Assembly: GCA_001724265.1 (NCBI GenBank)
Contig: MEDY01000069.1
Coordinates: 62,001 to 126,000, forward strand
Length of the DNA: 64,000 nucleotides
Reading direction: 5' to 3'
Source: Rhizaria sp. SCN 62-66
Taxonomy: Eukaryota
The notes under the pieces were generated by a model. The model was not told the origin of the DNA, searched no databases, and saw only the letters and a list, made by a program, of their open reading frames with translations. The position numbers and the translations under genes were made by a program. Within the stretch, counting starts at the first letter, position 1; every line of letters begins with the position of its first letter. Positions 17,786 through 61,918 of the stretch are shown piece by piece.

Positions 17786-20700
17786 ATGGACACAATCCTT
17801 ACACCGTCTGTACTGGACGCTGAATACGTCCTTCAATGTCTCTACACGCCTTACTCCGTTGTTCGTAAACGCCTCGTTGTCTTCAAGGCTATCCGCGAGG
17901 TATGTGATTTACTGCGACCGCACTCACTACATAATTTGCTCTGTTATTATGGCACAATCTCCCTTTTCCCACTCTCACCACGTCCCCAAATACCCATGTC
18001 CACTGAACCTTCCTTTCCTGTCCGCTCTCTCTCTCGCACTTAGCTCATCCGCATGGTTGACGCCGGCGCCCCCGTATACGTCTACGGCAGCGGTCCTCGC
18101 TCTGTGGCGCTGCCCGGCGGCGACATCGACATCGGCGTGCTCACCCCATTCGCGCCCCAGACCTTCCTCGCAGCCTTGCAGCACACCATGTACCTCACCG
18201 CCGCCGGACAAGAGGCCACCAAGGAGGCCGCAGCCGACCGCGCCTGTGCCGCTTCACCAGCCTTCTTGCGCGCACCCTTTTTGCCGCAGCAATAGCAGCA
18301 GGTGCAGGGGCCAGCAACTCCCAACCGGGCCCTGGCCCTGGCACACGCCGCCAAAGCTGCCCCGCACGCGTCATCTTCATCCTCTTCATCGTCCGGCTTG
18401 AGCGCAGCTGCGGCCGGTCAGAACGGGCCCGCGGTGACCGTGGATGCTGACGGGGCCGTGACCGTCGCTGTGCCGCTTCCGGGAGGATCTGCTGGCAGTG
18501 GCGCTGGCAAGGCTGACACTGGCAAGGCTGCCCACAGTCACCGCTGCCCGCGCTGTTCGGGCCGCATCAAGCCCCCTTCTATTTCCGGCCTTGGTGTCGG
18601 GACTTGCTGTGAGCCGGAGACTGGGGCTGTGGCGGCCGCGGCACGGACGCTGCTGGACGGACTGGGCGTGCTGCCCTGGGCCGCCCCGCCACGGTTCAAA
18701 ACGCTCTCGGCAGCGCTGACGACCGCGATCACCAACACCTACGCCTCCACCGCCGCTGGAGCCGCTACAGCCACCGCCACGCTTGCGGTCGCCGGCGCGA
18801 CGCCTGTGGAGGGCGCGGTACTGCAGCCTCGACAGGTGCAACAGCTGCTGATGACGAACGCGCTGCTGGCGTTGCGCCGGTACCGGCTGACCCCGCAGCA
18901 GCACAAACAGGCCGCCCTTGGTATCCAGCCTAGCAGCAACAACAACAACATTAGCAGCAGCAACAATGCCCACGCGAAGCCTGTGTTGAGCCCGGAGGTT
19001 GCTGCCGCCGTTGCGGCGCTGCTGTCGCATTTGCAGGCGGCACCGGCAGGTCAGTCGTGTCATGATGAGAACCCAACCTCTTCGCTGACTGCGCCGATTA
19101 CTGTTGTGGCCGCACCTGCTGTGCCTGCTGTTGGTGGCCGGAACACGTCCGGTGCGAAGCTTTGTGGCCACGACCACGAGACCAAGTGCGACGGACACTT
19201 GGACGCTGATGACGGCAAGTGCAGCTGCAACTGCGCATGCACTACTAGCGACGCGAGTCTTGTCGTTGGCAACAGGAAAGCTGCCAAGAAGGACCGCGCC
19301 GCCGCAGATGCGCGTACTAGCGATGTCAACAGCGCCGGCGACTACGACTGCACTTGCGTTGTCAGCATTGCAGGCGGCTTACCTTGCAGCACGGACGCCG
19401 TGAACCACCGCGATTTCATGCACTGTCCCGCAGTCAGCCACGTGACGGTGCTAACGTCGTCCGAGGTCAAGCTGCTCAAGTGCCAAGTCGACGGCATTCC
19501 CGTCGACGTGTCGGTCAACACAATCGCCGGCGTCAGCGCGCTGTGCTTTCTGACACAGATCGAGGAGTGCATTGACGGCGTCACGCATGGTCCCATTGCG
19601 ACGAATACGCCTAGCTTGGCAAGTCCAGTCAGTGGCACCACAGGCGCTAACATCGACGCTCCCGTGACCGGCAACAATGACGACTTCCCCGCACTGTCCG
19701 CGGCGCCGCCGCAGCAGGCTGAAACCGGTAAGGGCAAGGGCAAGGGCAAGAATAAGCAGAACAGCAGCGCCAGTGCCTCCGCCAGCCACATCGCTGACTC
19801 AAGCCCCCGTGAGTCCGTCCCAGACGCGGCCTCCACAGCGGCGACGGCGGCTGCCGCGGCGTCACCAGTGCTGCCGAGGCACCTGCTGAAGCGCTCAGTA
19901 ATGCTCGTCAAGGCCTGGGCGCTCAAGGAGGCGCGGCTACTCGCGTCTAGACATTACCTGCTGTCGTCGTACGCCGTCGAGACAATGGTGATCTTCACCA
20001 TCAATCACTTCTACGCCGACTTGTCATACTGTTCGATTCCCTCGGCCGCGTCAACAGCGCCAGCACCAGCGCAGTCATCAACAAAGACTCCCCTCGACCC
20101 GCGCATGCTGCCGCTGTCCCCACTGTCGGTGTTCATTCGTTTTGTCGACATTTTCGCTACGTTCGACTTCTCACGCTTTGCAGTCTCGCTCGCCGGTCCG
20201 ATCCCGCTCAAGCCCCTCCCGGCCGCTGCCTACGCCTCTGCTTCCGCCTCTGTCTCTGGCCCGTCCGCGACTGAGCTTGCGACTGGTGCCTCACCGCTGC
20301 CCGGGGTCAGTCTCCACTCTCTCCGGCCCTACGACTTGACCTCCACAGCGGCCGCAATCGCCGCTGTCACTGCCACTACTAATACTAGCTCCACGGTGCT
20401 GTTGCCGTCGCGTGACGCCAACGCGCTTGACACTGCGGCCTCGTCGGGCTCGCTCTGGCTTGGCGTGCCGTACCCCACATATCACTATCTTTCCAGTAAC
20501 AATATCAACGATGACACTCCACGCTCAAGCAGCGCCACGAACGCTGCTTCGCATGTCCCCGTTCTTGGCCGTGCCAGTAGTGACTCCGAGGCCGCGCTGC
20601 CCTTCACGGCCCGCGCCGCCGCCGCACGCGCCCGCGGCGGCCCTCTGCTGTCCCAGCGCCAGCTGCAGGAGCTCATGTTTGGCAACGGCGGCCACGAGGC

Positions 20701-22731
20701 CAGCACGACGGTCGACCCTTTCACGGCCTCGGCGGCGGCGTCGGCGGCCGCGCACTCCGCGGTCTCGGCAGTCAACGCCGCGGCCGCACAGGCCGCCGCC
20801 GCCACCGCCGCAGCTGCTACTGCAGGCTCTAGTCCGACTGCGACAGGCGAGTTGAAGCGCTCCGGCAGTGAGGGCCACAACGGCGACTCCCCGGCGGCCA
20901 CGACACCGGTGGCCCAGGACCCCGCCTCTCAGACTGCAGCAGCTGCCGCCGTCGCAGCCGCCCCCAAGGCTGCGGCGGCGCTGTCCGGCAAGCAGTCGTT
21001 CGCCGAGGTCGTGTCAGACTCGCTGCACAAGGCACGGCCGCGCTCCGTCTCGGCCTCGGCCTCTGTCTCGACCTCCGCTGGCACTGGCACTGGCGTGGGC
21101 GCCGCGGGTGTTGTCGCCTCATGCCAGTCGACGTCTCCAGTCGCCGTGAACGCGAGTCTTGCGACCGCCACAGCAACGGCACCTAACGCCACACCTGCGG
21201 CCCCTGTGGCTGCGTCGGCGCGCCCGCCTCTGGCCAGCTCCCCCGACTCCTCGTCTTCGTCCTCGTTCTCGTCCTCGTCTTCGTCCGCCACTGCGGCGGC
21301 ACCCAGCGCCGGTGCGCGGCCGCCGGCGAGCGCGAGCGCACGGCTGAGCGGGAGCGTCACGACCCCCGCGGCCGCGCCTGCCCCGGTCCCGGCCCAGTCG
21401 GATCCGCTGGCGCTGCCCGCGGTGCCAACTCTGCTCGTGCCCTCGGCACCCATGCGCCGCTCGCTCACGCTCTTCGAGCACCACTATGCGGCCGCCACCG
21501 CCGCAGCCGCCGCGGCCGCGGCCGCCGCCGCCGCCGCAGCAGCTGCCGCAGCCGCTTCGGTGTCGCAGGCCGACTCTGTGTCCACCGGCACGCCCGCAAC
21601 CGCGGCTGCGGGCGCCGCTGCGACTGCGGCTTCGGCAGCCGGCGCTGCTGCGAGCGTTGCTGGTGCGATCCCGGCGGGCCAAGGCCGGCCGCCGACCCCC
21701 GCGCTGAGCACCGCGGTGGCGCCGTCCGTGGCCGGCGTGCCCGTGAGCGCGATGATGCTCAGCGGCGGCGCGGGCGAGCTGCCCCTTGTCGTCGTCGACC
21801 CGCTCGACGCCGGGAATAACATCGCGCGCGCGGTGTCGGCCTCGAGTGCGCTCCGCATCACCGCGGCGCTCGCGCGGGCGCGGGCCATCGTCGGCGAGGT
21901 CTGGGCCTCCGCTGTCTCTGTCCTCAACGCGAGCAGCAGTGACTGCAGCGCTGTTGCTGCGCTTCCCGAGGCAGATGCAGAGACTGCTGCCGAGGCCGAG
22001 GCCGCTGCCGTGCGCGCGCGTGCCGCCTTTGTCTCCGGCGTGGGCACCCGGCTCTTCAACAACACGCTCTCCAGCTACGACTCTGCGAACCCCGTCACGG
22101 GCGCCGCCGTCACCGCCGCTGCCGCCGCGGCCGCCGTTGCCGCTCCCGCTGACGCCGCGCGCGCCACGGCGGGCACGCGCCCGTCGCTGGACGCGTGGAC
22201 GTGGTCCGTGCCGTCCGCCGTGCTCGTCGAGCAGCGCGCGCGGCTGCGCGAAACGAGCAGCGCCGTCGCGGCGCTGCGGCCGACGCTGTACAACCACTAC
22301 CACAGCTACCACGCGTACATCGCCCACGCCAACGCCGCGGCCAACAACCAGGCGCGGCTGCAAGTGCAGGCGCAGGCGCAGGCGCTCTCGATGCAGCAGC
22401 AGGCGCAGTTCGCGCAGCAGCAACAGCAGCTTGCGCAGCAGGGCGGGGCGTCCCAGTCGCCGCAGCAGCCGCAGCTGTCGTTCCAGCCGCTGCCGGTGCC
22501 GCCGCAGCCCGGGCTGGTGCCCGCGCTGCCGCCGTCGTTCCCGCTGCACATCGCACCGCACGCGGTGCCCGCGCACAGCCACGCCGCGCTGGTGGCGCTG
22601 GCTGCGCACTACGGCATTTTCGTCCCGACGTTGGCCTACGCGGCGATGCAGCAGCAGCAGCAGTCGTCGCACACTGGCGGCGCGGGCCTCGGCGGCGACG
22701 GAGCGCTGCCACCCGGCGTGATGCTCATGTC

Positions 22732-22770
<39 letters not shown>

Positions 22771-23649
22771 GTCGCCGTTCGGCGCCGTGGTCTACGGCAA
22801 TAGCCCTAGCGGCATTCCACCGCCGCCCCAGTTCGCACCCCACGGCCACCCGCAGCAGCAGGCGCCGTTCGGCTGGCCGGCCCACGCCCACAGTCCCTTC
22901 GCTGCCCACAGTCAGTTCGCTGTCCATGGCCCCGCGTTCGGCCCCGGCGGCAGCCCCGGCGCACCCGGCGGCGGCGGCGGCGGCTACGGCTTTGTGGCCC
23001 ACGGCCTTCCGCACCCGCACAGCGGTCCGCACGGTGGGGGCCCGTTGCACATGCACATGTCCGCGGCCGGGCCGCCAGTGTATGGCGGCGGCGGCGCCGT
23101 GGCGATGGGCGGCATTCCCGGCTTGGCGGGGCTGCCGCCGATGCTGCCGCACGGCAACGCGCTTTACTTCACCTCCCACCAGCAGCCATATCAAGCACAG
23201 TCGCAGTCGCATGGCCAGGCTCAGGGCCAGGGCCCGCACCGCAGTCGTGGCGGCTCCCCGATGCTCGCACCCACCGGCCCCGGCGCCGGGGGCGGCAGCG
23301 CCAGCGGCGGTGTGCCCCCGCCTCTGCAGTATGGCCGCCAGACGCCGCCGCTGCTCGCCGCGCGCGCGCCGCTGCCGCCGTCGGGGCTCGCCGCCAGCAC
23401 CAGCGCCAGCGCGAACGCCAACGCTGCCGCGAGCGTGACTGTGCACAGCGGCGCCGGCGTTTTTGCGTCGTCGTCATCGTCATCCTCGCCGTCGTCTCCA
23501 CTGCAGCCGTCGCCGCATGCGGTCGCGCATGCAACCGCGACCACGGGCGCTGCGCCGGCGCCGGTGGCGCAGTCGTTCGCGTCCGTGGTCGCGGCGGCGA
23601 GCGGCTCGCCACAACTGCAGGCGCTCAACGTGGCCGTGCCCCCGCCGTT

Positions 23650-23713
<64 letters not shown>

Positions 23714-26700
23714 CAGTTGAAGCAGCAAGGTCCCAGTGTGCCAGCGGGCGCTGCGTCCCCGACGACTGGCCGCAAGGGCAAGAGCAAGACCAACACCGCC
23801 GCCGTCGCCACTGCGTCTCATGTCGGCAGCGCCCTCCCGGCTGCTGTCATTGCAACCGGCGCTGTTGCTGAGGCCGGCAGCGCTGACCCGCTGCTCAGCG
23901 GCTCTGTTGGTGATTTGCCCCACTCACGATCGCTGCCCAACGCCGCTGCAGGCTCCGCGGCCGCCACTGCCGCCGCTGCCGTTGCTGCGCCTGCGCTCAC
24001 TGCGCCCTCGACGACCGCGTCGTTGTCGGGCAACGGGTCCATCAGCAGCACCACGGGTGAGAACAACAGCACACACAGTGCGCACACGGGTGCTCCGACA
24101 ATGACCGCTGCGTCTATCATTGCGCAGTCGCTGCCGATGCGCCGCTCTAACCTTGCGCTGCTTTCCGTCGTCTCTGGCGCAGCCCCCGCCCCGAGCCCTG
24201 CTGCCGCTGCGACTGGAGCTGGAGCTGGAGCTGGGTCCGCCTCTGTCCCGGCCACCGCGGCCGCGTCGTCCGTGACCGCGCTCTCGCACGCGCAGTCGAC
24301 GTCCAGCCCGACCACCACCGAGGCCGACGCCAGCGCGGCCGGGTCGGCGTCTGCGTCTGCGTCCACGACCGCGCCGGCGCTTCCCGTGACCGCCAGTGCT
24401 GCCACAAGCCAAGCCTCCACCTCTGGCGCTGGCTCTGGCACTGGCTCTAGCAGCACTCTGGTCGCGACCGCAGCGCCCTTCACGGCCTCACGCAGCAGCT
24501 TCAGCACCACGCCCATTCTCGCTGCATTGCACAACATCAACAGCTCTGGAGGCGGCCGCAACGGCGGCGGCGGTGGCGGCAGCGCGCGCGGCAGCTTCCA
24601 GGCCCTTAACAGCAGCGGCGTCAGCGGCGTCAGCGGCGGGGGCGGCGGCGGCAGTGGGACGCCGCTGGGCCCATCCCCGCGCGTGTCGCTGTCCACGCCC
24701 GTCGCCGGCCCCATGCCGATGCACCACGGCCCTCACGGCGGCCCTCACGGCGGCCCTGTGCTGGCCACCGGCGGGCTCGGGCTTGGGCTCAGCGTCATGG
24801 TCCCCGCGCTTCCCTTCCCCGCCCTCGCGACGTACGGCGCGACTGCGCACAATGCGAACCTCCAGCCTCAGTCCCAGGCTCAGTCTCAGACCGGAGTCGA
24901 GGGCGGCCGCACCGCGCCGTTGTCGCCGGTGTCGCAGTGGCTGTCGCAGGCCGTGGGCGTGGACGACAGCGCCGTGACCGCGCTGGCGGGCGTGCTACAG
25001 GCGGCGCACTGGGAGCAGCAGTGGGCCGACGCAGTGCTGCAGCATCAGCACCAGCAGCAGCACCAGATGCAGTATTTCCACCACTACCACCAGCACCACC
25101 ACGGCCACGGACACGGACACGGACACCACCACTACCGCAGTAAGCACAACAACAATAACAACAGCGGTGCTGCGTCAGGCGGCAACGCCAGCGGTGCCAC
25201 TGATGGTGGTGGCGGCGGCGGCGGCTACGGCAGAAACGCGCACTCTGGCGGCGGGGGCGGCAACGCGCAGCAGCCCGGGAGCAGCCAGTCGCGGCGCAGC
25301 GCGAACCGTGCAAGTCAGCATGCTCAGCAGGCTCAGTTCAACCACGGCTTTGCGAGCAATCCCAGCTACAACAACAACAACAACAACAACACTGCAAACG
25401 CTCAGAGTGGTGGTGCGAGTGCGAACACAACGTCCCATCCTGTACCTGCTGCCTCTGCGGCCAGTGCCGCTGTCGCTGCGCCCGCTGAGAGTGTGGCTCA
25501 AACGGCTCCTTCGTCATCTTCGGCTGCCAATGCTGCCATTACAGCGAGCGGCGCCGCCGCTGCCCCGGCGGCTGATGCAACTGTGAGCACTGTTAACGCC
25601 TCGAAGACGACCAAAACTGCTGAGAACACTGAGAACAGCAGTAGCGCTGCGCCTAGTGCAGACGCGACTGCAGCTGCAACATCTACTGTCGAGACTTCGA
25701 CTGCGAGCGCGGCTGAGGGTAGTGCGAGCAACGATGCTAAGGCTGCGCCTGTGCCAGCCTTAGATGCTGCTTCGTTGGCGGTTGATGTTGCTACTTCAGC
25801 CTCTCGTGTGAGCTCAAAGGGCACAAAGAGCAAGAATGCTTCCGGCAAGCAGACACCAAAAACTCTACCACAGCAACAACAACAGCAGCAACCGCAACAA
25901 CAACAGCAGAAGACCGGCGCCACCAACGCTGCCAAGAAGAACAAGAACGCTGTCGCCATCAACATGAGCTCCAACGCCAACGCCAACGCCGCCGCGGCCG
26001 CCGCGACTGCGATCGCGGCGGCGAGCACGGTCGCCGCAGGCATTTCCGCCGCCACTGCCCAGGCCTCCGCCCACGGTCACCTCGCCGGCCGCGGCTCGTT
26101 CTCGCAGCCGCACCACAGCGGCGCCTTCTTTGCGCAGCCGTACCAGCAGCAACAGCAGCAGTACCAGGCGTTCCCGCCGCAGACCGCGCAGTTCCAGCCG
26201 CCGTTCGCGCCCCCGCCCGGCCCGTACCACTACCAGGCCGTGTTCGTGCCATACGCGGGCCAGCAGCCGTCACAAGCGCCGTCGCAGGCGCCGTCGCAAG
26301 CGCATCTGTCGTACCAGCAGCAGCCGCAGACACCGGCGCAGGCGCATGTGCAAGCGATCTCGCAGCTGCACATGCAGAACCAGCTGCAGCAGCAACAACA
26401 GCTGGCGCTTGCACAACAGCAACAGCAGCAGCAGCAGCCGCCTCCTGCTGCTAATCAGAACTCGCAAAACGCATCACAACCTCAACCTCACCCTCAGTCC
26501 CAGAGCCAGATGCCGCCGCAGACTCAAGGACCGGTTGCTGGTGGCAGTGCGCCGCCCTCCGTGACCGTCTCCCAGGCTGACGCGGCCGCGCAGCTGCTTG
26601 GCCACGCACAAGGGAGCCAGCCGGGGTCGATGTCACTGCCATTGTCGTCGACCGCGTCCGGGCCTCCGTCGTCACAGCCCCAGTCGCGGCCGCAGTCGCA

Positions 26701-29071
26701 GGCGCCGTCGCGCGTCCAGTCGCGCACGCAGTCCCAGGCGCAGACGCGGCCGCAGTCGCGCTCGCAGCAACAGCAGCAGCAGTCTCCGCAGCAGCCGCAG
26801 TTGCAGTCGCAGTCGCACGCGCAGGTTCTGGTGACGGCGCCGTTTCCCGGCGTCTCGGGCTCGGTGACCGCTGGCGCGACGCCGCAGTACTCGCCGCTGT
26901 CGGGTGTGTCGCGCGCGCACACGCCGCAGGCCGCCGGCGCCGCGGCCGCGCCCGCCGTGCCCGCCAGCGTGGCCGCCAGCGTAGCCGCCAGCGTAGCCGC
27001 CACCGTGGCCGCTCTGAACGTCGCGCTGGCTGCGTCGACTGCGCCCGCGTCGTCGCCGCCCACGCCCGTGACCGCGTCGCTGACCGCGGGCACCGCGGGG
27101 AGGTCGGCTGCAGACGCCGCCACAGGATCCGCCACAGGTTCTCCGCAGCCGCCGCAGCAGTCTGGGCTGACGGGACAGGGCTCGAGCAGTCGGGTGAACA
27201 CGGCCACGCCCCTTATTGGGCTTGCGAGCGCGACCGCGAACGAGCCCAGAGCCGCTTCTGCGACTACTGAGACTGCTGTATCATCTGCGCAGATCACTGG
27301 CAACGCGAAGAGCAACAGCAAGACTGCGCGTCACACCCGCACTGTCACCAGCCCAGCCGCGCCCGGCACGGCCGCCGCGTTCGCTGAGTCGAGCATCGCG
27401 CCCAGCAGCGCGCGCGGCAGCGTGAACAGAGCGCGCGGCGGCTCGCTCGCGCTCGCCGGCAGCGAGGCCGACGCGGCTACCGCGGGGCCGGGCACGGTCT
27501 CGGGCACGGTGTCGGGCCGGAGTACGCCGCAGCAGCAGTTCCGCACTGGCCCCGCGCAGAGCCAGCGTAACCGCCAGCAGATACAACAGCAGTATCAGCA
27601 ACAGCAGTATCAGCAGCAGCAGCAAGGGCACTACTCGCCGCAGCAGCCGTACGCGCCGCCACTGTCCGCCACTGGTTTCTATGGCCCTTACGGGTCTCCT
27701 TCGTCGCCGCAGCAGCCGCTGTCTCCGCTGGCATCGCAGCAGCAGCCGCAGGCGCCTGCGCCTGCGCATGCGCCTGCGCAGTACGCTTACGCCTACGCAC
27801 CGGGACCGGGCTACACGTACGTCCCTGTCTTCACTGCCCACGGTCACCCGGCCGCCCACGGTCTCCCCGCAGGTCCCGGCGGCGTCGCGGCAGCCCCAGT
27901 CTTCGCGCCCCCAGCCGCGCTCCCGGCCAGCCACTCTGCCCACGTTTCCTCGGGCCCCGGCGCCGCCGCCCACGGTCACGGCCACGGCCACCACCTGTCG
28001 CTGGCTCCGGCGCCGGGGCAGCACGGGCAGCACGGGCAGGCGGTTTGGGTGCCGGCCAGCGCCAGCGCGGGCCACCCGTCGTCGTTGCCTCCGCCGCAGC
28101 CGCACTCGCCGCCGCAGCAGCAGGTGGTGCACGTGCCCGCGGGCAGCCAGCTTGTGAGTCACGAAGGCATCGTGTACCTCGTGCCTGCGGGCGCTCATGT
28201 CGTCGCCGCTGCGCCCGCGTCAGTGCCAGCGCCCGCGTCTGTGCCTGCGCCCGCGCCTGCACCTGCGCACGCCGGCATCAGCAACAACAGCAGCGGCAGC
28301 AGCACCGAGTACTCGCACGCTGGCGCCGCGGGCGCGGCCGCAACTGCGGCTACGACTCCGCAACACCAGTACCCAGCGCAGCCGTCGCACCTCCCGTATC
28401 CAATGTCTCAGTACCTCCCCGGCGGCCAAGCGCCACCGCCGCCGACGCAGGGCCCGGCGCTGGGCCAGCCCTACGCGCAAAGGCCCTACTTGCAAGGGCC
28501 CGGGTACGGCTACCCGCACGGTCAAGCGTATGGCTACGGCCAAGCGCACAGCCACGGCCAGCCGGGCCAGCCGCCGCGCGGCAACAACCGCCAGCGGAAC
28601 AACAACAACAACAACAGCAACCATAACAAGCACGGTCGCCATGGCCAAAACAGCGCAGCCGCTGATGTGGCCGGCGCTGAGGCCGCTGCGGGCGAGAAGT
28701 CGCCCGCGCCCGCCGGCGAGCAGCCCCACGGCCAGCAGCAGTGGGGCGCGGACATGCTGGGGGGCTCGCTGCCGGCGCATTACGCGGCCGCTGTGGCGAA
28801 CGGCACGATCACGGTCAACGTCAGCAGCAACAGCGGCGTGCTCTACTCGCCCGTGCCGCAGGTGCAGCCGCAGCTGCAGTACGGCGCGCCGCAGCAGCCG
28901 TACTACGTGCCGCACCAGCAGCACCAGGGACGTTCACACCATCATCAGCATGGACAACGCCAAAGTCATAGCCAGGGCCAGGGCCATGGCCAGGGCCAAG
29001 GCCTGGGACAGGGACAGGGACAGCAACGTCAACGTCAGCCTCGGCAGAATGTCAACAAACCGAGTCAGTGA
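17786..29071 (+). CDS. Giant Pol-beta-superfamily nucleotidyltransferase (PAP/OAS1 substrate-binding-domain type), about 3713 aa; exons 17786-17899 and 18044-29071; in-frame TAG at 18293-18295
   Basis: Catalytic motif VYGSGPRSVALPGGDIDIGVL lies upstream of the TAG. Downstream in the same frame: EVKLLKCQVDGIPVDVSVN, LLKRSVMLVKAWALKEARLLASRHYLLSSYAVETMV, FDFSRFAVSLAGP and VVDPLDAGNNIARAVS. Intron GTATGT...TAG at 17900-18043. TGA stop. Confidence 0.8.
23651..23710 (+). repeat. Coding CAG microsatellite: CAA(CAG)19, poly-Gln 20
   Basis: Directly visible uninterrupted CAG run inside the nucleotidyltransferase ORF. Confidence 0.9.
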
Positions 29072-29601: not shown

Positions 29602-31842
29602 ATGGTTGCGCCGTCCTTCACAGACTCGTCTAAGGACGTTGGCTGGTGGTGGAACCTCATTGTTCTTACTACCGTTATCATTGTGGTTCTTTTTGTCGGT
29701 GGCATGGTCTTCGAAAATGCGCCAGACTACGGTGTAAACCTCATGGAAGAGGACAGCTCCTCGTCTGTTCAGTCCATTGTCTTGCTCGATCATTCCAGCT
29801 ACGACGACGCCAAACGCGCTGCCCGCACGACGCCTAACGAGGATAACCAGCTGTACTCCCCTATTTCACACATGGAGCATGCGTAGCAGAGCGCCAAGCT
29901 GTTCAACTACACCTTCCCACCCTGGCCCGCGTCTGCTGCGCCTCACTCGCCGCCCGTCGCTGCGGCTCCGCAACAGCAACAGCAACAGCAACAGCAGGCG
30001 CAGCGCCCCCGTGCCCCCGCGGACTGCGCAGTTATTGTACAGCTTGCGTGCACCGAGCTCGGCCGTTATCTCACCGCGCAAGCGCCTCTCTGGTCTCTCG
30101 GCGTCGCCACCGCTCCTTTCGGCGTCATTCCGCCGCAGCACCGCGTCTTCTCCCCGAGCTTCGCAGTGGAGACCGTGCACTCGTACAGCATCGAGAACGT
30201 TGAGAACCGCAACGCATACTACCCATCGATCCCGCGCAACCCGGCGACGGACGCGCTGGTGGTCGCCAGGAGGCTCAGACTCACCGTGACGCTCGCCATC
30301 GCGCCGACTGCGACTGGCTTCGGATTCACGAAGAGTGGCAAGAGCACCAACAAACACAGTGGTGACGAGAGCAGCATTGAGAGGAACGGCGGTGACGCGA
30401 GTGCTGCTGTGGATCGCGATGCTGAGAACAGCACTGGCGACGACGGCAGCCAAGACGTTCGCACTGAGGCTCACCCAGATGCCGGCTCCGGCTCCGTCAG
30501 CGTGTCGTCCGTGCGCGCCGAGGCGATCGTGCAGTGCTCGTGGGACGGCGCCTGCCACGTGCACGGCGTGCTCTGGCGCTCGCCTTACCCGATTCCGCTG
30601 CGCCCGAGCCCGTCCCCGTTCTTCACGCCGCTTGCGCCCGCGCTGCCGGTCCCTGCGCACAGCTACGCACCGGACGCCCCCGTAGGGCTGGGCACGTTGC
30701 GCGTGATGAACGCGAACATCTGGAACTACAACCAGTGGCCCGCGCGGCGCCCGCTGCTCACGCAGGAGTTTTCACGCTGGCTGCCCGACGTGGTGCTGCT
30801 GCAGGAGGTCCGCGGGCGCCACACAGGCTTCCTCCGCTGGCGGTACCACCAGGCGCCGGCGCTGGCGGACGACTTCGCGCGCGTGGTCGGCGGGCCCGTG
30901 GGGTTCGTGTCCACGGCGACGGCGCAATTTGACGACGCGCACCCCGAGGAAGAGGGCGTGGCCATCCTCTCACGGCTGCCGATCCTCGACTACGGCTGGC
31001 TGGTGCTGAGTTCCAAGGGGTCGATCCACAGTGACGGGATGCCGCGGCGCGTGATCTGGGCCCACGTCGCGCTGCCCAGCGGCGACACGGTCATCGTTGC
31101 CACTGTGCACCTCACGCTCACGGCGCACGCGCGCGCGCGGCACTACGTGGAGATCGGGCAGTGGTGCGAAGACCTGCGCGCGGCCAAGGGCGGCGTGCCG
31201 CTGCTGCTGAGCGGTGACTTCAACGAGATCCTCTCGCGGCTTCCGGTGCACCCGTTCTTCAGTCGCGGTTTTGTCGACGCTGCGCAGCAGGTGTACGACG
31301 ACGAGGACGATGCGAGGGAAGCCGCTGCCTCCGCCGCTGCCGCTGCTGGTGACGGCGCTTTGGCCGGGACTGTGGGCGCGTCTGCTGAGTCGGAGTCGCT
31401 GACTGCGACCGCCAACACCAAGAGCGGCGACGGTGACAGCAACACCGCCGCGGCTGCTCCTGTGGCTGCCGTCGCTGGCTCTGACGCCGCCAAGGCCAAG
31501 AAGAAGCGCCGCCAGACCCCGTTCACGTTCCCCACCGACGCGCCGAGGAAGCTGATCGACCACATCTTCATCCACGGGCCCGCGCACGCCGTGGCGTACT
31601 CGATCGCGGGCGACAAGATGACCGGCACGATCTTCCCCTCGGACCACCTGTTTAACGTTGCGGACATTGACGTGGGCAAAGCTGAGGGGGTCAAGGAGGG
31701 CGGGTATGGAGCAGGGATCCCGCGGTGGCCTCGGCCGAGTGCCGCAACAGCAGCCGGTGGTGCCGGTGGTGGTCACGGTGCGGGGGCTAGCGAAGGAAAG
31801 GAGGAGGAGGAAGTCGGGGACTCGAAGCTCGATGAACTGTGA
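29602..31842 (+). CDS. Endonuclease/exonuclease/phosphatase (EEP) family protein with N-terminal membrane anchor, 746 aa if the in-frame TAG at 29884-29886 is decoded
   Basis: TM segment WWWNLIVLTTVIIVVLFVGGMVF. EEP motifs LRVMNANIW, PDVVLLQEV, GVAILSRLP, ATVHL, LSGDFNE, LIDHIF and PSDH. ORF-track pieces 29536-29886 and 30166-31842 share one frame with only the TAG between them. Ends KLDEL-TGA. Confidence 0.8.
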
Positions 31843-40579: not shown

Positions 40580-43003
40580 TCACTTGTTCTTGTCCGCCAC
40601 AAGCGCTTTCATGACAAGCTCCATGTGCTTCGGCAAAGGCGCCGTCACAGCCATCACCCCATCCCAGTCGCCGCCGCCCGCAGTCACCGCAGCGCCGGCC
40701 CGCGCAACCGCGGCCTTGACCCGCGCGCGGTCGGCCTCGGTGGCGACGCCCTCGAAGGCGGCAGTGAAGAGCGGGTGTTGGAACGCCATGCTGCGGCACG
40801 TCAAGTGCAACGTCGGTGGAGTGGCAAGCGCACGCGCTGACGCGCCTCGCGGGACAACCGTTGCCACTGCTGTAAGCGCGGAATCGGGCAGAATGGGGCC
40901 GCGCAGCAAGCGCGCGTTGCAAGTCCTGTCATTGCTACTGAGACGCGTGCTGTCGTTGTTGTTCGGCTGCTGTTGACTCTGTGTTGTGAGTGGAGTGTAG
41001 CCCTCCGTGATCAAGTCTTCGCCCAGCAGCGGCGAAGACAGCACGGCCCCACAGTGACGGCGTAGCTGGTGTTTGCGGCCCGTCACGGGCGACATCGCCA
41101 ACAGCGACAGCACAGGCGCTGACCGAGCTGGGTCAGCGCTGTCACTACTGGCTGCGGGAACGGTCAGAGTGGTTAGCTCGGTGAAAAGGCTGAGCGCTGT
41201 CAGGTGTTCTACAGCAGCCCCGTTCGTGCCACTCTTGCCACCGCGAGAGGTGAGGGCCTTAGTCTTGCTCTTGCTCGTGCTGTTGTGTGTGCTATGGAAA
41301 GCGTGCGCTGAGCCGGTGTCGGTCGTCGCATATGTTTCAATAGTGGTAACACTGTGGAATGCCGTCGCGTGTGTGCTTCTATTCATGGTCTGAGAACCGT
41401 GCTTAAGGGGCGATTGCGCGATTGACGCCTGAACCATGCGACTCAGCACCATAACATCATCATCAGCAGCATGATTGGCTGTCGTAGTTGCACGATTCAA
41501 AGTCACGCCAGACACCTTGTTCAACGCTGACAGAGAAGGCAGCGGTGCTGAAAGCGCCCAGTATAGCTTCTTAACTTGATACACGCCGTTATTGTCTCCA
41601 TCTTCGTCATTCATATGCCTGTCATTGCGATTAGCGTTAACATTTGTGTGGTGTTTGTTAGTCGTGGATTTCGTCGTAGCGTCAACGGCAGCCTTAGTCT
41701 TGGCTGCAAACTGGTCAGTTAGCGCCTTGGCCGCGAGCCGCGTCTTCGCCACAACCAATACACCTGATGTCGCTTTGTCAAGCCGGTGGACCAAACGGGG
41801 GCGCTCAAAGCAAGAATGCGCCCACAGGGGCAGTCCGGTGGCGGGGTGAGTCTCGGGCGCAGACTGTAGCTTTGACTCAGACTGCGACTCCAATGACTGG
41901 CGTGGTTGAGAGAGCATTGCAGGTGAGTGCATGGACACAGTGTGCAACGCAGCCAAATACGTGTCGATGTGGTTATTGCTGTTGTTATTCGAAGTATCCG
42001 CCAAGTGACCATGAGCGGGGTCCTGCTGGCTTAGAGACGCAGCAGTCCCCGCGTGCACCGCCATCCCCGGCGGTTTATCGAGCACTAGCACGTGCTCATC
42101 CTAATACAGCACCCACGGCAGCAGACGGCGCGTGAGGCCGACAGCGCGGGCGTATGGCACCGACTCGGCCACCTCGTAGCCTAGCGCCGCCGAGTCGCCG
42201 CCACTCGGGGCGGCAGCGCCAGGGGCGAGTGCAGGAGTCAGCGGGCTCGGGTGGCTAGACGAGCCACTGCTACTGTTCTGACTGCCAGGCGTAATTGTTG
42301 CAGTGTTCAAATCCGTCTGCGAGAGCAAGTTCGCGACTGTCGTCGCAAGCGCCGGTGCCGCAGCCGCTGCTGCAGTTGTCAGTGCCAGAGAGTTCGTGCC
42401 GGTATGGGGCGAGGGACTGTTAGGAGCGGTTGGAGAGAATGTGTCCGACAAAAGCACCTTCGCCACGAACAATGGCAGCACAACAACGTCGCCGTGAGCG
42501 AGCTTCGACGCGATCTTGACTTTGGAACCCAAGCCAGCACGTCCTGCGCTTGCGCTCTTGTTGCCGTTCTCAGGATATGCGGCAGCAGTCGTGATGAGTG
42601 AGACGTCGGCAAGTGTGAGTGCAGATTGCGGTGCCAACGGCATCATCTGTGGGTGTGACAGCGACAGTGACGTTGCGTCATGAAGCGGGATGGCGTCATG
42701 ATCATTGTTGCTGCTACTAACGGAGATACTCGTTCCAGCAACCGTGAGAAGTGGAATCGAGCTCACAGTCACTGAGCCACCTGGGGTGGCAACAGTTACT
42801 AACTCAAGTGCGCTCGTGGTATAACTAGGTACCATCCGCGATGCGTTAATGGGTGTAACAGCTGCAGGAATGAGTGTCACTTCATTGCGTTCGATTAGCT
42901 TCCAGATCGTGGGCATGTTAAGCGACGGCACTGCGGCCTTCAGGAAGGCATCGGCGCGCAGGGCGTGGTTGCGCGAAGATACGCGCAGGCCAAGTCGGTA
43001 CAT
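40580..43003 (-). CDS. RluA/RluC-family pseudouridine synthase with S4-like N-terminal domain, about 807 aa; in-frame TAG at 42101-42103
   Basis: S4-like LRADAFLKAAVPSLNMPTIWKLIERNEV...KVKIASKLAHGDVVVLP. Motif I VLY*DEHVLVLDKPPGMAVH, catalytic LVHRLDKATSGVLVVAK, then KKLYWAL, PVTGRKHQLRRH and LHLTCRSMAFQHP. The start codon is uncertain; 43003 is the first in-frame ATG. TGA stop. Confidence 0.87.
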
Positions 43004-43279
43004 CCACCGACGCGTAATAGGACCAATAACAGCCGATGTTGCGACGGTACTGAAGCTAGTTGCGTTTATTGGGTGTAGCGCATGCGATGCAACGGATCGC
43101 AGCACTCACGCGGGAAGAGCGAACAGGAAAAGATCCATATGTGAGCCAAACACCAACCTTGCCAAATATTATTAACGTTTAATAACCAACTTTGAACTGC
43201 GTATATTGTTACAATTCTCAACTTTTATACAACGGACTCTACACTCACATACACTTCATTCCATTCAGCGCCCTCTCAG

Positions 43280-54246: not shown

Positions 54247-54776
54247 GCTCCTGCATAGCAAACGCGTTTCCACAAGATATCAAGGTGAAGACAAGCGTTT
54301 TGAGTGGTGTGGATAGTAAAATGTGATATTTTCCAGCAGTAAGTACAGAGATAAAGCAGTAGCATTACAAATATAATATAATTGAGCGCTGTAGGGGTGA
54401 TTCGAAGTATGTCGAGTCAGCCAAAGTGGGTCGCCTCTAGCTGGACCCTGACAGAGATTGAAATCAGCTCAGATCGGCTCAAATCGATCGTCAATGCGGC
54501 ATGAATTTTAACAATGAGTATTATATCTTCGCATCAGTATAAATATAAAATCGTCACTCTTACTTGACGTCTCTTGCCTTTCCACAGCTCATCGCCCTAA
54601 CTTGCCTGATCCCTCTCGCTTTGTCACGCCAGGATCTTCCCTCAGCACCAGCCCGTACCGCTTTCGCTCCCGGAAACTGGTCAGATTGCCTTCTCTCGCA
54701 ACAAACTCCGACCCTGGTGCACGTTGCTCTGTGATCTTTGCTAGGCACTGCGCGCTGCGCTGAGACGTCGTGATAT

Positions 54777-57347
54777 ATGATGGGTTTTCTCATCTTTCTC
54801 GGAGGTACGTCCCTCTATTCTAGTCACGCACTTCACTATAAATGTAAGCTCCTCTGTGCCACTATATTCCCACTCTCTTACCATACGCACTTGCATTGTT
54901 GACCATGCTATAGGATTGCTATTGGGCGTTGTCTTGTCCCTCGTTGCCTTGTTCTTCGCGCTGTTCAACGTGCGCCTCTTCTCCTCCGCGTCTGGCGGCG
55001 TGCAGCTGCGCTCCGCGGGCGACCACCTGCGCTCCCGCATCTCGCGCCCCTCGGCCGCGCCGCGCGGAGCCGCGTTTGCCAAGTACCCCGTGCGCTCGCT
55101 GCTCGACACTTACTTCGACGCGAACCGCGACGAAGAAGGCAACTTCTTCGAAGACCCCGAGGCGCTGGCCATCAGCAACAGCGGCACTGCCGCCGCCGCG
55201 GCCGCTGCTGCACCCGCGTTCGCCTGCTTCCTTAAGTCCTCTGTCGGCAGCGCCCCGAACGACAGCACGCCGCAGTCTCTCGACGACAACAACTCTGTCG
55301 CGGGCTCTCAAAGCAGCAGCAGTGTTGCGCATACCAACACCTCCAGCTCACTCGATACTGCCAACATGGCCGCCTCCGGCCTGGCGAGCCCTGTAATGCG
55401 CGCAGCCGACGACGACTGGGCCCGCGAGGTTGAGGCTAACTCGGTCCGTCTTAGCGTTGCCCTTGAGACGTACTTGCAGACCGCGCTGGCGGCTACCCAC
55501 CCCAACCCCGACGACGCCGACGCCGACGCCATCGCCGAGGCGGCGGCGGCGGCTGCGGCTGCCGCTGCGAGGGACCGTGAGCAGCCCGTGGCCGGCGTGG
55601 AGCCCGGGGGCGAGAGCGTGGTGTGGTTGAACCTGCTCATTCGCCGTGCGCTGCAGTTCGCCGTTGGGCTGGGCGTCGAGGTCGAGCAGTCCACGCACGC
55701 CGCCGCCGCCGCAGCCGCAGCCGCCGCGGCCACGACTGCAAACACCGGAGCTCAGAGCGAAGCGCTGGGTAGCCCAGTGTCGTCACCGCTGTCGTCGCCC
55801 CTTAGCAAGGGCAAGGGCGGCGCCGGTGTCTCAGCGCGCCCCCTAGCGACGGCCACCGGCGTGGCGAGCGATGAGTACAACATCAGCAGCAGCGGCAGTG
55901 ACCGTGCGCAGAAAGTGGACACGGTCACCACGGCCGCCGCGCTGTCGACGTCGCTCTCGCCCCGGCCTCAGCGCACCCGCGCGGCCACAGCTGGCGCCGC
56001 AGCCTCAGCCACAGCCTCAAACAACCCCAACGCCGCCAGCAATGCGGGCTCTGGCAGCAGCACTGCGAGTGCGAGCGCGAGTCGCCGTCCTGCGCCGTTC
56101 GACGCCTCGTCGTCCGTGCTCGTTCAGCTTGCCAACGCGGCTCTGGCGCGCGCGCCGCTGCCCGACCTGCTGGGTGTGACGCAGATCGAGACGCTGTACC
56201 CCGGAGTCGTGGCGCCGCTAATCCACCGTGTCGCCGTGCTGTCGGCGGAGCCCGGGGAGCCGATTGTGTTCGAGGTCGAGTGGACATACACCGGAGACTC
56301 CGTGCTTGAGGTTTCGACGAGCCTCAAGATCGACGCGTTTGGCATCAAGGGGCTCGCCTCCATGCCCGTGCAGGTCCGTAATCGCAACTGTTGAACTGAA
56401 ACGCAGAAGTGTTTACTTGTTGAATGAGTTTCTTTTTGTCATGAATTGAATCTTGTGAATTGTAATCACATTTTCATATTTTTTGCTTTTTTTCACGAGT
56501 TCATATATCTTTGTTGTTTTCTTCGCTGCGTATATAGGTCGCAATCTCGAACATTTACATCGCCGCTTGCACACGCTTCTCGCTGGCACTGACTCCCCGC
56601 GACTCAGCCCTCTCCTTCTGCCTCACTGCCCCCCCCGTGCTGCGCTTCGACCTTGCCTCAGCGCTCGGTTACTACATCCAGCTCGTCAACACGCCGCATA
56701 TCCACTCGATCGTGCACAAGCTCGCCACCGCCGCGCTCGCGAAGGCCGCCGTCGCACCCAACATTGTCTCGGTCCCCTTGCTGCGCGGTGTGAGCGACAA
56801 GCTCGTGGCCGCCGCACTCACGGTCTTCGGCCTCAAGCCCCCCGCGCCCGTGTCTGCGCCCGTGTCTTCGTCTGCGCTGGCACCTGTGCCGGCTCGCAGT
56901 GATGCCGCGGGGACGCGTGATGGAACTCGTGAGGGTGCAGCTCGTGATGCCAGTGGGCCGAGCACGCCTGCGGTCACGCGTACGCAGGCGAGGACCGGGC
57001 AGCAGCCGCAAGAGGAAGAGGAAGAGGAGCTTACTCGCGGACAGGGGCAGGGGCAGCGGGACGCCGCGTTGTCGGGCCTCCGCGTCCGCACTGCCGCGAA
57101 CAACAACACGGCCGACTCGGCCACTCGTGATAACAACATCAGTGGAATGCGTTCCCCGAACGCCACCGCGCAAGAGCAGTCGCAGGCGATGAAGTCGCCG
57201 CTGGGACTGGGCTCCGGCGCCGCCGGGCGCGGGCAGGCCGGCGCTCTCGTCAGCGCGCTGAGCGGCGCCATCGGGTCCGGAGCAAAGAGCCCGGTGCTGA
57301 GTCAGCAGCTGTGGGGGGACGACGCCAAGAAGGGCGAGTTCTACTGA
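54777..57347 (+). CDS. Membrane-anchored SMP (TULIP) lipid-transfer-domain protein, 765 aa, 3 exons (54777-54804, 54914-56373, 56538-57347)
   Basis: N-terminal TM (FLIFLGGLLLGVVLSLVALFF). SMP-like blocks ESVVWLNLLIRR, LPDLLGVTQIETLYPGVVAPLIHRV, FEVEWTYTGD and FCLTAPPVLRFDL...LVNTPHIHSIVHKL. Both introns restore the frame. TGA stop. Confidence 0.75.
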
Positions 57348-57930
57348 AGAGTGCCAGCTGACAAGCATGCACACTGACAACAGGCACAAATAATGCAGCA
57401 ACATCAGTGTCACCTGGCGTTGTGATATGTCTGTCGAGTAATGTTAAGGTATTTTATTCCGAGCAAGCTGAGTATGGTTCTCGGACTTCTGTTTGTAACC
57501 AATGTTTAGGATTTACTCGTCGTATTAAAACTTAAAGTAACGCTATCTAGGTATTTTGTATTTATGTTTATCTCTGTAACTTTCCATTGGTTTGTATAGA
57601 GTAATACAAGGTATATTTATGTCAAAGACACACAACATTGTTTTTACGCCTTCTTAAAGTTAGACAAGATCGGAACGATTCCAACTAATACAAAGAAGTG
57701 TGCGTAGTACAGATCTGGAGTGAGATAGAACAAAGTGAATTGTATGATTTCTCAGACACACCCAACAGTTGTGTGGCACTGGCCCCATATGCATACATGT
57801 ACATAACAGTATGCATACAAAACCATCACATCAGAAGCACATTCATACACGACACCATAAATCATTCGTGGAAGCACGGTATTAACAGGAGAGTTTGCAG
57901 ACACACGCATTAACACAATCCATCAAGCAT

Positions 57931-58944: not shown

Positions 58945-59316
58945 TGTGCTTGGTAGTCTGGGTGGCGTTAGAGTGTGAGCGAAAGTGAGGGTATGGGGCC
59001 GTGAGAAGGGGGGTCCAGCAAGGGGCGATTCGAGCGACATGCATTTGAGAGGGAAAGAAAAGTGAATTGATTGCGTGAATGGATCCGATACTTGAGCGCC
59101 CTGGTTGATATGATATACATTTGAGTGTTTGAACTATTCTCCCAATTTTGCACGAGCTCATCTAGCGGAAGATGTTGCTGAAATGCCTCCTTTGTTCAAC
59201 GTGGGCTTCCTCCCAAGATTCACGCTGCCTTTCCGTTTGTGGTCGCATCAAATGTCCCTCGTCCCACTCACCTCACACTCTCATTTCGCGTCCACTTGCT
59301 TCCACAACCCGTAAAA

Positions 59317-59800
59317 ATGATTCGCCTCCTTGTCGTCATTCTCGCCATACTCCTCAGTACGTCCCCAACGCAATATACATCTTGATCTTCCGTTTACCAA
59401 CGTAGCACCGATCCCTCGCTCATATCTCCGTTTCTCTCTCTGTTCCGCGTTCCGCATCTCAACCCCACCAGCCGTCTCCGCCGAGCAGATGAACTGTGTC
59501 TACGACCCTGTCAAGGCCAAGCAGCAGGTCCAGAACATCTGGACCAAGCTCCAGGCCATGAACACGCGCATGTCCACACTCACGGGCGACGCCCTCACCC
59601 GCGAGTCCATCACCGCGGCCCAGACCGAGTACCTCACCTTCCCCATTACCTACCAGATCAACTGGGAGATCATCGACGTCAAGCCCGAGGACGCGCAAAA
59701 GGTCGCCGACTCGCTGCGCGACAAGGTCCGCGAGGCCGGTGCCACGCTCGGCTCCAACAAGCACATTCCGCGCCTCTTCAACGCCGAAGAAGAGGATTAA
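59317..59800 (+). CDS. Small secreted hypothetical protein, 122 aa, 2 exons (59317-59356, 59472-59800)
   Basis: Splicing GTACGT...CAG yields the signal peptide MIRLLVVILAILLTVSA followed by EQMNCVYDP. Very strong C/G-ending codon bias. TAA stop. Confidence 0.75.
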
Positions 59801-60223
59801 GCAAGCTCTGAGCAGACCATTGTACACGCGCTGCTGGGCACATGGTGTTTTTTCGTGTACTGTCAATGGATATGGCGTACTCCTCTGCACAGCTATAATA
59901 AAACTATAATTCCTAAACATGACATGTAGAAACTCAAAAGCTTGTACAAATGTGAAGTAACAGGCGGAAGCAAACATAAGTTGGAGCGAGAAACTAAAGA
60001 TACTTGGCTTGTATGATGTCATCAATACACAAAGCTTTGAAAAGAAATAAAACGAAAATAACAAACTGTCTAATTTCACAAACATATCTACTCACAAAGA
60101 ACCAACACAAACTCGCCCTGATCACAAAGCAGCGCTCACCCGGTGTATTCGCCTTCTGTCATGTGCGTGCGCGTGAAGTCAATGTTTGTCACTGTGCACG
60201 CGCGGTATGATATAACAGTGCGC

Positions 60224-61918
60224 TTACTCGTTCTGGCCCTCGGGGCGCATGGCGGGGAAGAGCAGGACCTCCTTGATCGAGTCGGAGTTGGTCAGGAACA
60301 TGGTCATGCGGTCAATGCCCATACCCCAGCCGCCAGTCGGGGGCAGGCCGAACTCAAGTGCCTGGATGAAGCCCTCGTCAAGGCCGGGGACCTCGTCGTC
60401 GCCGGCGGCCTTAGCCTTCATCTGCTCGGCGAAACGCTCGCGCTGAACGTGGGGGTTGTTAAGCTCGGTGTAGGCGTTGCAGACCTCCTTCTCGAGCACA
60501 AAGAGCTCGAAGCGCTCAGTGAGGCCGGGGATCGAGCGGTGCTGCTTCGCCAGGGGCGACATGATCTCGGGGTGATCCATGATGAAGCAGGGGTTGGAGC
60601 ACTGCACCTCGAGGTACTCGCCGACGAGCTTGTCGAGCAGGCGCGCAGTCGTGCGGGGTGCCTCGCACTTGACGTTGTGCTGCTTGCACAGGTTGTCGAG
60701 GAACGCGTTGGCCTCGTCCGACTCAAGAGGGAACGGGATCTTGACGTTAAGCGCCTCCTCGAGACCGGAGATCATGGAGATGCGCTTGAACGGCGGGGTG
60801 AAGTCGACCTCGACGGGGGTCTCCTTGCCGTAGGGCGTGTACTGGATCTTGTAGGTGCCGTGGATCGACTTGACCATGCCCGACACCATGCGCTCAGTCG
60901 CCTCGATGAGGTCATGGTAGTCGGCGTACGCCCAGTAGAACTAACACGTCGTGAACTCAGGGTTGTGCGTCATGTCGATGCCCTCGTTGCGGAACTGGCG
61001 GCCGATCTCGTAGACGCGGTCGAGCCCGCCAACAACGAGCTTCTTGTGGTAGAGCTCGGGGGCGATGCGCATGAACATGTCCTGCTTGAGCGAGTTGTGG
61101 TGCGTCGTGAAGGGCTTCGCGGTCGCGCCGCCGACCTCGACGGCCATCATGGGCGTCTCGACCTCGAGGAAGCCGCGCTCATCGAGGAAGCGGCGGATGT
61201 AGTTGATGATCTTAGAGCGGACGGCGAAGATCTCACGCGTCTTGGGGTTGAGCATGAGGTCGAGGTAGCGCTGGCGGAAGCGGACCTCCTGATCCTTGAG
61301 GCCGCGGAACTTGTCCGGCATCATGTGCAGGCAAGGGGTGAGCAGCACCATCTCGCGGGGGTAGATGGACAGCTCGCCCTTGCGGGTACGGCCGACGTAG
61401 CCGCGGACGCCGACAATGTCGCCGCGGTGGAGCACGGCATGAATGTCCCAGTTCTTCTCGGCCGAGCCCTCCTCGGCGACGACCTGGAGCGTCTCGCCGT
61501 CGCCCTGGACCTGGTAGAAGATTAGCTTCTTGCCCGCAGCGCGCTGCAGGTGAATGCGGCCCGCGACGGAGACCTCGATGGTGGTGTCGACGGCACCGGC
61601 CTCGATGGCGTCGAACTGCACGCGGAACTGCGGGATCGACATGGTGACGTTGAACTTGTGCGGGTACACGGCGTAGCCAGAAGCCTTGGAGTACTCCTCG
61701 AGCTGCTTCACGCGGGACGCGAAGTAGTCGGCGGCGTTGCCCTCGGAGACGACGGTGGTGACGGCCTTCTCGGGGGCAGCGGCGGCGCGCGTGGCGGCCT
61801 TCTCGGCGCGCGCGGCGGCCTGAGCCTCCTGCTTCTGCAGGCGCTTAAGGGCGTTCTTGGAGAGCGCCTGGCCATCGCCCTCGGGGGCAGGCACGGGGGT
61901 AGGGTCCTTATCAGCCAT
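60224..61918 (-). CDS. KARS1: Lysine--tRNA ligase (class II, eukaryotic cytosolic type), 564 aa; in-frame TAG at 60941-60943 (codon 326)
   Basis: Motifs [91 protein letters not shown] and [15 protein letters not shown]. The two ORF-track fragments are one frame. TAA stop. Confidence 0.95.

Follow-up and report, generated by a model that had tools for sequence, protein, structure and literature searches.

The 64-kb window analysed here, that is, the whole stretch of DNA from contig MEDY01000069.1 that was studied, holds four otherwise full-length genes that each carry a single in-frame TAG codon. These codons lie where a preliminary description of this DNA had placed them, at 18293-18295 and 29884-29886 on the plus strand and at 42101-42103 and 60941-60943 on the minus strand. 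They are found, in this order, in a giant gene for a low-complexity protein, a gene of the endonuclease/exonuclease/phosphatase (EEP) family, a gene for an RluA/RluC-type pseudouridine synthase and the gene for lysyl-tRNA synthetase (LysRS). When TAG is read as sense, the frames flanking it fuse to open reading frames (ORFs) at 17786..29071, 29602..31842, 40580..43003 and 60224..61918, with lengths of 3,761, 746, 807 and 564 codons, respectively. The question addressed in this text is whether UAG is a sense codon in the genome concerned and which amino acid it would then specify. The four genes and their TAG codons are given below.

17786-29071, plus strand: giant gene, exons 17786-17899 and 18044-29071, 3,713 codons, TGA end
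18293-18295, plus strand: TAG in the giant gene, in the context CAG CAA TAG CAG CAG (QQ-x-QQ)
29602-31842, plus strand: EEP-family gene, 746 codons, hydrophobic N-terminus, C-terminal KLDEL, TGA end
29884-29886, plus strand: TAG at codon 95 of the EEP-family protein, behind the N-terminal membrane anchor and ahead of the catalytic domain
40580-43003, minus strand: RluA/RluC-type pseudouridine synthase gene, 807 codons, TGA end, Pfam PF00849 with E 9.8e-18
42101-42103, minus strand: TAG at codon 301 of the pseudouridine synthase, within VLY-x-DEHVLVLDKPPG, also given as VLY-x-DEHVLVLDKPPGMAVH
60224-61918, minus strand: LysRS gene, 564 codons, intron-less, TAA end
60941-60943, minus strand: in-frame TAG at codon 326 of LysRS, at the Glu position of NPEFTTC-E-FY

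In-frame TAG codons and gene ends in the window

Across 17 curated gene models with 14,353 codons in total, TAG occurs four times in frame, and TAA and TGA do not occur at all; the two zeros arise partly by construction, as the gene models are delimited by TAA or TGA. The conserved genes are full length when compared with Pfam profiles or homologues and are not interrupted by TAA or TGA, in agreement with the earlier statement that the genes contain no internal TAA, TGA or frameshift. The rarity of TAG that had been noted is borne out by the same count. UAG has a share of ~0.03% of codons and would represent ~0.7% of the glutamate codons if it encoded glutamate, and the curated models contain 708 CAG, 516 GAG and 64 GAA codons. 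Downstream of each TAG, both the GC content at third codon positions (GC3) and the coding potential are unaltered. A symmetric scan for stop codons between long open frames was also tried, and its noise in this GC-rich DNA precluded a comparison of TAG with the other two stop codons.

At the gene ends, the situation is reversed. An independent, intron-resolved curation reproduced the earlier tally of 19 ends (13 TGA, 6 TAA and no TAG), and one further end, the TGA of the plus-strand ORF 56538..57347, brings the set to 20 ends with 14 TGA, 6 TAA and no TAG. TAG is thus never the true terminator in the 20 curated ends. Two unannotated ORFs with a positive coding score do end in TAG, and both are weak: the coding score of one is 7.6, and the other runs antisense to a cathepsin gene. 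The genes ended by TAA include those for LysRS, isoleucyl-tRNA synthetase (IleRS), coatomer epsilon and DeoC, and the TAA or TGA end matches the end of the Pfam profile or of the homologue in the case of the RING, QPRTase, BolA, coatomer epsilon and LysRS genes. The proposal that UAA and UGA still serve as stops is upheld by these 20 ends, several of which coincide with profile or homologue ends.

The lysyl-tRNA synthetase site and the three other TAG codons

The LysRS protein matches human LysRS (6chd) with an E-value of 1.6e-207 over query residues 14-563. Its TAG stands in the context NPEFTTC-x-FYWAYADY and aligns, free of gaps, with the Glu of human LysRS (6chd) and of all 10 aligned relatives. 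Motif matching finds E in this column in 119 of 120 database homologues, and Q or K never; in the 120th match, the motif string is missing. The same picture is obtained at the nucleotide level, with GAG or GAA at this site in all nine related metagenome loci that were checked. The three closest loci, L001 (80% identity) and L002 and L003 (72%), all have GAG, and the change from GAG to TAG is one G-to-T step. We take this Glu to be the residue that touches the lysine substrate in bacterial LysRS structures. An intron at the LysRS TAG is ruled out, since the alignment runs through without a gap.

Contigs of four other runs were aligned to positions 42000-61999, and since these are contigs rather than raw reads, minor variants would escape. 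Among them is X3 record 8, a DNA contig obtained in another study, which covers 60560-61769, spans the LysRS TAG and has no differences. A contig of 1,946 nt from an RNA-Seq cDNA library (X5 record 22) covers 60011-61932, and with it the entire LysRS coding sequence, with no differences and no gaps. This library contains mRNA, given that it shows two exact intron-skipping joints, GT..AG on the gene strand (44621>44789 and 53669>53833), and that its depth is ~0 in intergenic bins. In a third study, a polyA-RNA contig (X7 record 28) covers 60752-61117, with no difference listed at 60941-60943. The listed runs from the studies with an unchanged LysRS TAG date from 2015-2025. The lack of differences in DNA and cDNA contigs implies that the LysRS TAG is not an assembly error and that it is neither edited nor spliced out. 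The preliminary description had named these outcomes as grounds for abandoning a sense UAG, and at the LysRS site the independent DNA and RNA contigs return the codon unchanged.

These contigs bear directly on the explanation that the standard code applies and that the TAGs either are real nonsense mutations in gene copies that are redundant or decaying, or result from errors in the assembly consensus. The contig does stem from a metagenome assembly, and two of the four TAGs lie in fast-evolving, low-complexity proteins. However, a DNA run of another study and RNA contigs of two further studies show the LysRS TAG unchanged, and the same codon is present at all four interruptions. Moreover, the conserved genes have neither frameshifts nor in-frame TAA or TGA, and beyond each TAG the genes continue to full length with the same GC3 and coding potential. 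We regard an origin of the four TAGs under the standard code as highly improbable.

In the case of the pseudouridine synthase, the TAG aligns without a gap to E. coli RluC (YEDDH) and RluA (YQDDH), by which an intron at this site is ruled out. The column contains E 41, K 35, Q 15, R 9, M 8 and others 21 times (n=129, obtained by filtering the next 148 HMMER matches for the anchored motif, a few of the regular-expression matches being spurious). The earlier claim that the TAGs in conserved motifs align with Glu consequently holds for LysRS, and it does not hold for the synthase, where the column is mixed. Public protein collections split the synthase gene at the TAG into products of 300 aa and 503 aa, and a HMMER search identified the corresponding entries, P0251 (residues 1-300) and P0250 (residues 305-807), as 100% identical to the two halves. 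The gap-free motif shows that the TAG has to be translated here, while the amino acid is not pinpointed.

The giant protein consists mostly of low-complexity sequence of Ala, Ser, Thr and Gln. Its frame stays open for 3,591 codons past the TAG at 18293, and the coding potential in this frame is positive on either side. A nucleotidyltransferase GS...DxD motif is located upstream of the TAG, where Pfam NTP_transf_2 gives a weak match on 18044-18292 (E 8.4e-4, 20.1 bits, below the 21-bit cut-off). Pfam and PDB sequence searches returned no match for the rest of the nucleotidyltransferase fold downstream of the TAG; presumably it follows after an insert of ~450 residues, as judged from motifs only. 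With a mean predicted local distance difference test (pLDDT) score of 41.5, a single-sequence AlphaFold model was unusable for recognising the fold.

The EEP-family gene encodes its catalytic domain (Pfam PF03372, E 3.7e-14) at residues 369-682, well behind the TAG at codon 95. On either side of this TAG, the same frame scores positive for coding potential, and an in-frame ATG is absent from the TAG up to residue 368 (273 codons). No homologue spans the site, as a protein search with the EEP N-terminus matched only the window's own fragment. Introns at 18293 and 29884 are unlikely, the flanks being GC-rich, exon-like and devoid of a GTAYGT donor; a candidate donor at 29735 would disrupt the frame.

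Considering all possible amino acids together, we hold it to be very probable that UAG is a sense codon here, as had been proposed. This is supported by the invariant Glu of LysRS, at which the TAG persists in DNA, cDNA and polyA-RNA, by the gap-free motif of the RluA-type synthase, and by the coding flanks at the other sites.

Introns, neighbouring genes and the host organism

The introns of the window are spliceosomal, AT-rich (~40% GC) within GC-rich exons and ~140-230 nt in length; their donor is GTA[TCG]GT and their acceptor CAG or TAG. Introns and the genes that serve as a reference for intron structure and gene ends are listed here, together with the flagellar genes.

17900-18043, plus strand: giant-gene intron of 144 nt, frame-preserving, GTATGT...TTAG, with boundaries of the type seen in the cDNA-spliced introns
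36995-37230, 37445-37657, 44622-44788, 53670-53832 and ~35208-35330, minus strand: introns with GTA[TCG]GT...CAG/TAG
36147-40031, minus strand: isoleucyl-tRNA synthetase, three exons, two AT-rich introns, TAA end; control for the TAA stop and for intron structure
53166-54246, minus strand: coatomer epsilon, intron spliced in cDNA, TAA where the Pfam profile ends (289/290)
44511-45661, minus strand: deoxyribose-phosphate aldolase, intron spliced in cDNA, TAA end
46737-49490 (plus strand) and 10789-14142 (minus strand): genes of the CFAP58 and CFAP97 (Hemingway) families

There is a fifth in-frame TAG, at 18041-18043, but it belongs to the 17900-18043 intron and forms its 3' splice site, so it had rightly been left uncounted in the preliminary description. 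Splice-site TAGs of a like kind are found in the IleRS and DUF202 genes. Several introns thus end in an in-frame TAG, which can pose as a sense codon.

The GC content of the window amounts to 56-72% per 4-kb bin. Both strands carry genes, which are long and have a GC3 of 0.64-0.93 in all models except one doubtful model, and the intergenic DNA is AT-rich. The products encoded in the window are LysRS, IleRS, farnesyltransferase beta, DERA, coatomer epsilon, QPRTase, BolA and a WW-RING protein, besides CFAP58 and CFAP97-like flagellar proteins and several proteins of very low complexity. This gene set identifies the window as eukaryotic nuclear DNA from a flagellum-capable host; with CFAP58 and CFAP97 (Hemingway), the organism has, or could form, a flagellum. 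Two further places deserve mention. A small plus-strand ORF at 59321-59800 (at most 159 codons, TAA end) has a strong coding score and no Pfam match, and the contig depth of the cDNA run X5 peaks over it (45-66, the highest within 42000-61999). At 56538-57347 (plus strand) and 56658-57404 (minus strand), two long ORFs overlap on opposite strands, neither with a Pfam match; the former has a strong coding score (92.5), and the latter is Arg-rich and looks spurious.

The sequence is present in metagenomes and metatranscriptomes from bioreactors, wastewater and activated sludge. Eleven runs from six studies contain at least part of the stretch, and four runs hold at least half of the sampled words, one of these four being the probable source of the window itself. 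The closest LysRS proteins are likewise of metagenomic origin (74-81% identity), and the best match with a name is that of Guttulinopsis vulgaris in EukProt (65% identity). In a quick maximum-likelihood tree of LysRS (51 rows), the window falls in a clade of 16 rows with a value of 100 in the SH-like approximate likelihood ratio test (SH-aLRT), and Guttulinopsis vulgaris is the sole named member of this clade; the placement relies on a single marker with sampling confined to the top matches. Guttulinopsis is an amoeba without flagella. The host would be an uncultured, intron-bearing, GC-rich protist of wastewater and bioreactors, probably a rhizarian related to Sainouroidea. The latter is the group of the sainouroid rhizarian Guttulinopsis and also includes exLh, in which UAG encodes leucine (PMC5304391).

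A metagenome scan with LysRS did not bring up the window's own contig. At the related loci L001-L003, no tRNAs were found. A minus-strand ORF at the start of locus L003 (1-811) has a TAG five codons ahead of the next TGA. This TAG could be an ordinary stop, which hints that this relative, with 72% identity and 52% GC, may retain the standard code.

Assignment of UAG and comparison with known codes

The best explanation of the data, and one that we consider probable, is that nuclear UAG is translated, most likely as glutamate, and that UAA and UGA are the sole stop codons. As far as the alignments indicate, Glu is the only residue that fits the LysRS column and has the plurality in the synthase column. 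A tally over conserved Glu columns gives Glu for the single invariant column (1/1) and a mixed result for the synthase, whereas 18293 favours Gln and 29884 lacks homologues. Glu is favoured because the poly-Q site then requires only a cheap Q-to-E change, whereas Gln or Lys would alter an invariant catalytic residue of LysRS. In our estimate it is favoured about twice as strongly as all alternatives combined, although one decisive site makes for thin evidence. The identification of the amino acid as probably Glu, made from the start, is accordingly supported and at the same time is the weakest part of the proposal: one site decides, the synthase column varies, and QQ-TAG-QQ points elsewhere.

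Several observations weigh against a UAG codon that encodes glutamate. The sample comprises four sites in one 64-kb window, and of these only the LysRS site tells which amino acid is meant. The genome may contain a second LysRS gene, which would also suit the standard code with decayed copies. Furthermore, the LysRS TAG is the only one of the four that is explicitly seen in independent contigs: the bin with the 42101 TAG is covered without a listed difference, yet no listed piece spans the site, and 18293 and 29884 lie outside the aligned stretch 42000-61999. The absence of TAG from gene ends is by itself evidence of modest weight, since with a ratio of TAG to TAA of 135:202 in non-coding DNA, zero TAG in six TAR (TAA or TAG) ends corresponds to p ~0.05, and the 20 ends bound the TAG share of stops to less than ~14% only (95%). 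In the window, no tRNA genes and no Rfam matches were found. The relatives L001-L003 have no convincing in-frame TAG and hence lend no support at the level of the clade. The synthase column is variable, and its best homologue has K. Finally, the pattern QQxQQ has 72 other instances among the proteins of the window, with Q at the centre of 67 of them and E at the centre of none, these cases being non-independent as they overlap within poly-Q runs; the context QQ-TAG-QQ would thus favour Gln at 18293.

The last two observations equally belong to an alternative in which UAG is sense but does not, or does not only, encode Glu. Here, Gln or Lys could be inserted by a tRNA(CUA), or decoding by near-cognate tRNAs could be ambiguous once eRF1 no longer recognised UAG efficiently. 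The synthase column accepts K and Q besides E, with K in the nearest homologue, and CAG is a single transition away from TAG and outnumbers GAG as the commonest neighbouring codon (708 versus 516). In addition, the published UAG-only reassignments that were found are all to Gln or Leu (PMC5304391; PMC11687900). In contrast, the LysRS column has E in all homologues with a readable motif and never Q or K, and the closest relatives have GAG at this position. An E-to-Q or E-to-K change at the LysRS site would probably be damaging, whereas Q-to-E in a low-complexity tract would be cheap. We consider an assignment other than Glu possible but unlikely.

Alternatively, UAG may still be a stop that is read through in some contexts or at low efficiency, by a dual meaning or by programmed readthrough. 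In that case, just a part of the translation products would be full length, and TAG would act as a stop at other places in the genome. The extreme rarity of in-frame UAG (four in 14,353 codons) is in line with this, and the 20 ends are compatible with a TAG share of stops below ~14%. At two of the four sites the next codon is CAG, with C as the next base, and a C in this position is a weak termination context. However, the codons that follow the four TAGs (CAG, CAG, GAT and TTC) have no 3' motif in common, and none of the four contexts fits the readthrough signal UAG-CAR-YYA. No obvious regulatory logic would place a leaky stop at the catalytic Glu of an enzyme that is essential and has a single function, TAG ends none of the 20 genes, and the depth of LysRS mRNA is like that of its neighbours in two RNA data sets, with the proviso that contig depth is a poor measure of expression. 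Programmed UAG readthrough at viral or cellular leaky stops resembles the present case in that the ribosome passes an in-frame UAG to yield a longer protein. It differs in that the TAGs here are situated in catalytic cores and not at domain junctions or C-termini, that the four sites share no context, and that no gene end uses TAG. Dual-meaning stops are known in Blastocrithidia and some ciliates (PMC12153298; PMC11687900), but for this window we judge readthrough of a genuine stop to be very unlikely.

If UAG encodes glutamate, its decoder would be a dedicated tRNA with the anticodon CUA. This anticodon is required because UAA is kept as a stop and only CUA reads UAG without also reading UAA, an argument that has been made for UAG-only reassignments before (PMC5304391; PMC11687900). 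Such a tRNA(CUA) could have originated from a duplicated tRNA-Glu(CUC) by one anticodon change, and eRF1 would have a weakened recognition of UAG; the eRF1 gene is not among the genes of the 64-kb window. The rarity of UAG, its absence from gene ends and the presence of TAA at six ends despite a GC3 of ~0.85 fit either a young reassignment or an inefficiently decoded codon.

Nuclear codes that split UAG from UAA are few. The cases described in the cited papers are those of a single rhizarian, a single fornicate and a handful of phyllopharyngean ciliates, all with Leu or Gln as the amino acid (PMC5304391; PMC11687900). The rhizarian case is exLh of the Sainouroidea, where UAG is read as Leu and termination is at UAA and UGA (Panek et al., 2017; PMC5304391). 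Leu was found there at 82 of 86 hyperconserved positions, with 384 UAG codons in 71 genes (PMC5304391). The window resembles exLh in that UAG alone is reassigned, UAA and UGA are the only stops and a tRNA(CUA) is predicted in both, and in that the LysRS clade of the window has another sainouroid, Guttulinopsis, as its sole member with a name. The two differ in the amino acid and in the frequency of the codon, with Leu and abundant UAG in exLh versus an invariant Glu site and rare UAG (4 in ~14,400 codons) in the window. Moreover, exLh is insect-associated and known by its transcriptome, whereas the present sequence is a wastewater metagenome contig.

UAG encodes Gln with UAA as a stop in Iotanema spirale (PMC5304391) and in Hartmannula sinica as well as Trochilia petrani (PMC11687900). 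As in the window, the meanings of UAG and UAA are separate in these organisms and UAA is kept as a stop, and the QQ-TAG-QQ context would suit Gln. On the other hand, the residue at the window's LysRS site is never Gln in 120 homologues, and both the lineages concerned (Fornicata and ciliates) and their genome style differ from those of the window. Glutamate as the meaning of UAG is known from Oligohymenophorea sp. PL0344, where UAA encodes Lys, UGA is the sole stop and the suppressor tRNAs are complementary to the codon (PMC10553269). In this AT-rich ciliate UAA is sense, whereas in the window, from a GC-rich and probably rhizarian genome, TAA ends 6 of 20 genes and never occurs in frame. Similarly, stop codons of the UAR pair have passed to glutamate in the peritrichs among the ciliates (NCBI table 30) and in Blastocrithidia (table 31), where both UAA and UAG encode Glu (PMC12153298; PMC11687900). 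In Blastocrithidia, UGA is reassigned as well, whereas in the window UAG is the only one of the three that behaves as sense.

The preliminary description had stated that UAG=Glu was known only alongside a reassignment of UAA, and the literature retrieved contained the same three cases, PL0344, the peritrichs and Blastocrithidia (PMC10553269; PMC12153298; PMC11687900). A full-text literature search, with subscription journals outside its coverage, did not find UAG=Glu combined with a UAA stop, consistent with the suggestion that the code is undescribed. Whether a wastewater protist allied to Sainouroidea indeed has an undescribed code, with UAG as Glu and with UAA and UGA as dedicated stops, is a question on which we see the evidence as evenly balanced.

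Such a code would bring a new amino acid to the UAG-only class and would show once more that eRF1 and tRNAs can distinguish UAG from UAA. As gene calling under the standard code already splits genes at TAG, as in the case of P0250 and P0251, the proteome of this organism is mis-annotated in metagenome catalogues. With UAG at ~0.03% of codons, the genome would offer a rare snapshot of an early-stage reassignment and a natural case in which codon-capture and ambiguous-intermediate models can be compared. In relation to exLh with its UAG-encoded Leu, it would mean that UAG first lost its role in termination and was then taken over, in lineages that are related, by tRNAs of different kinds.

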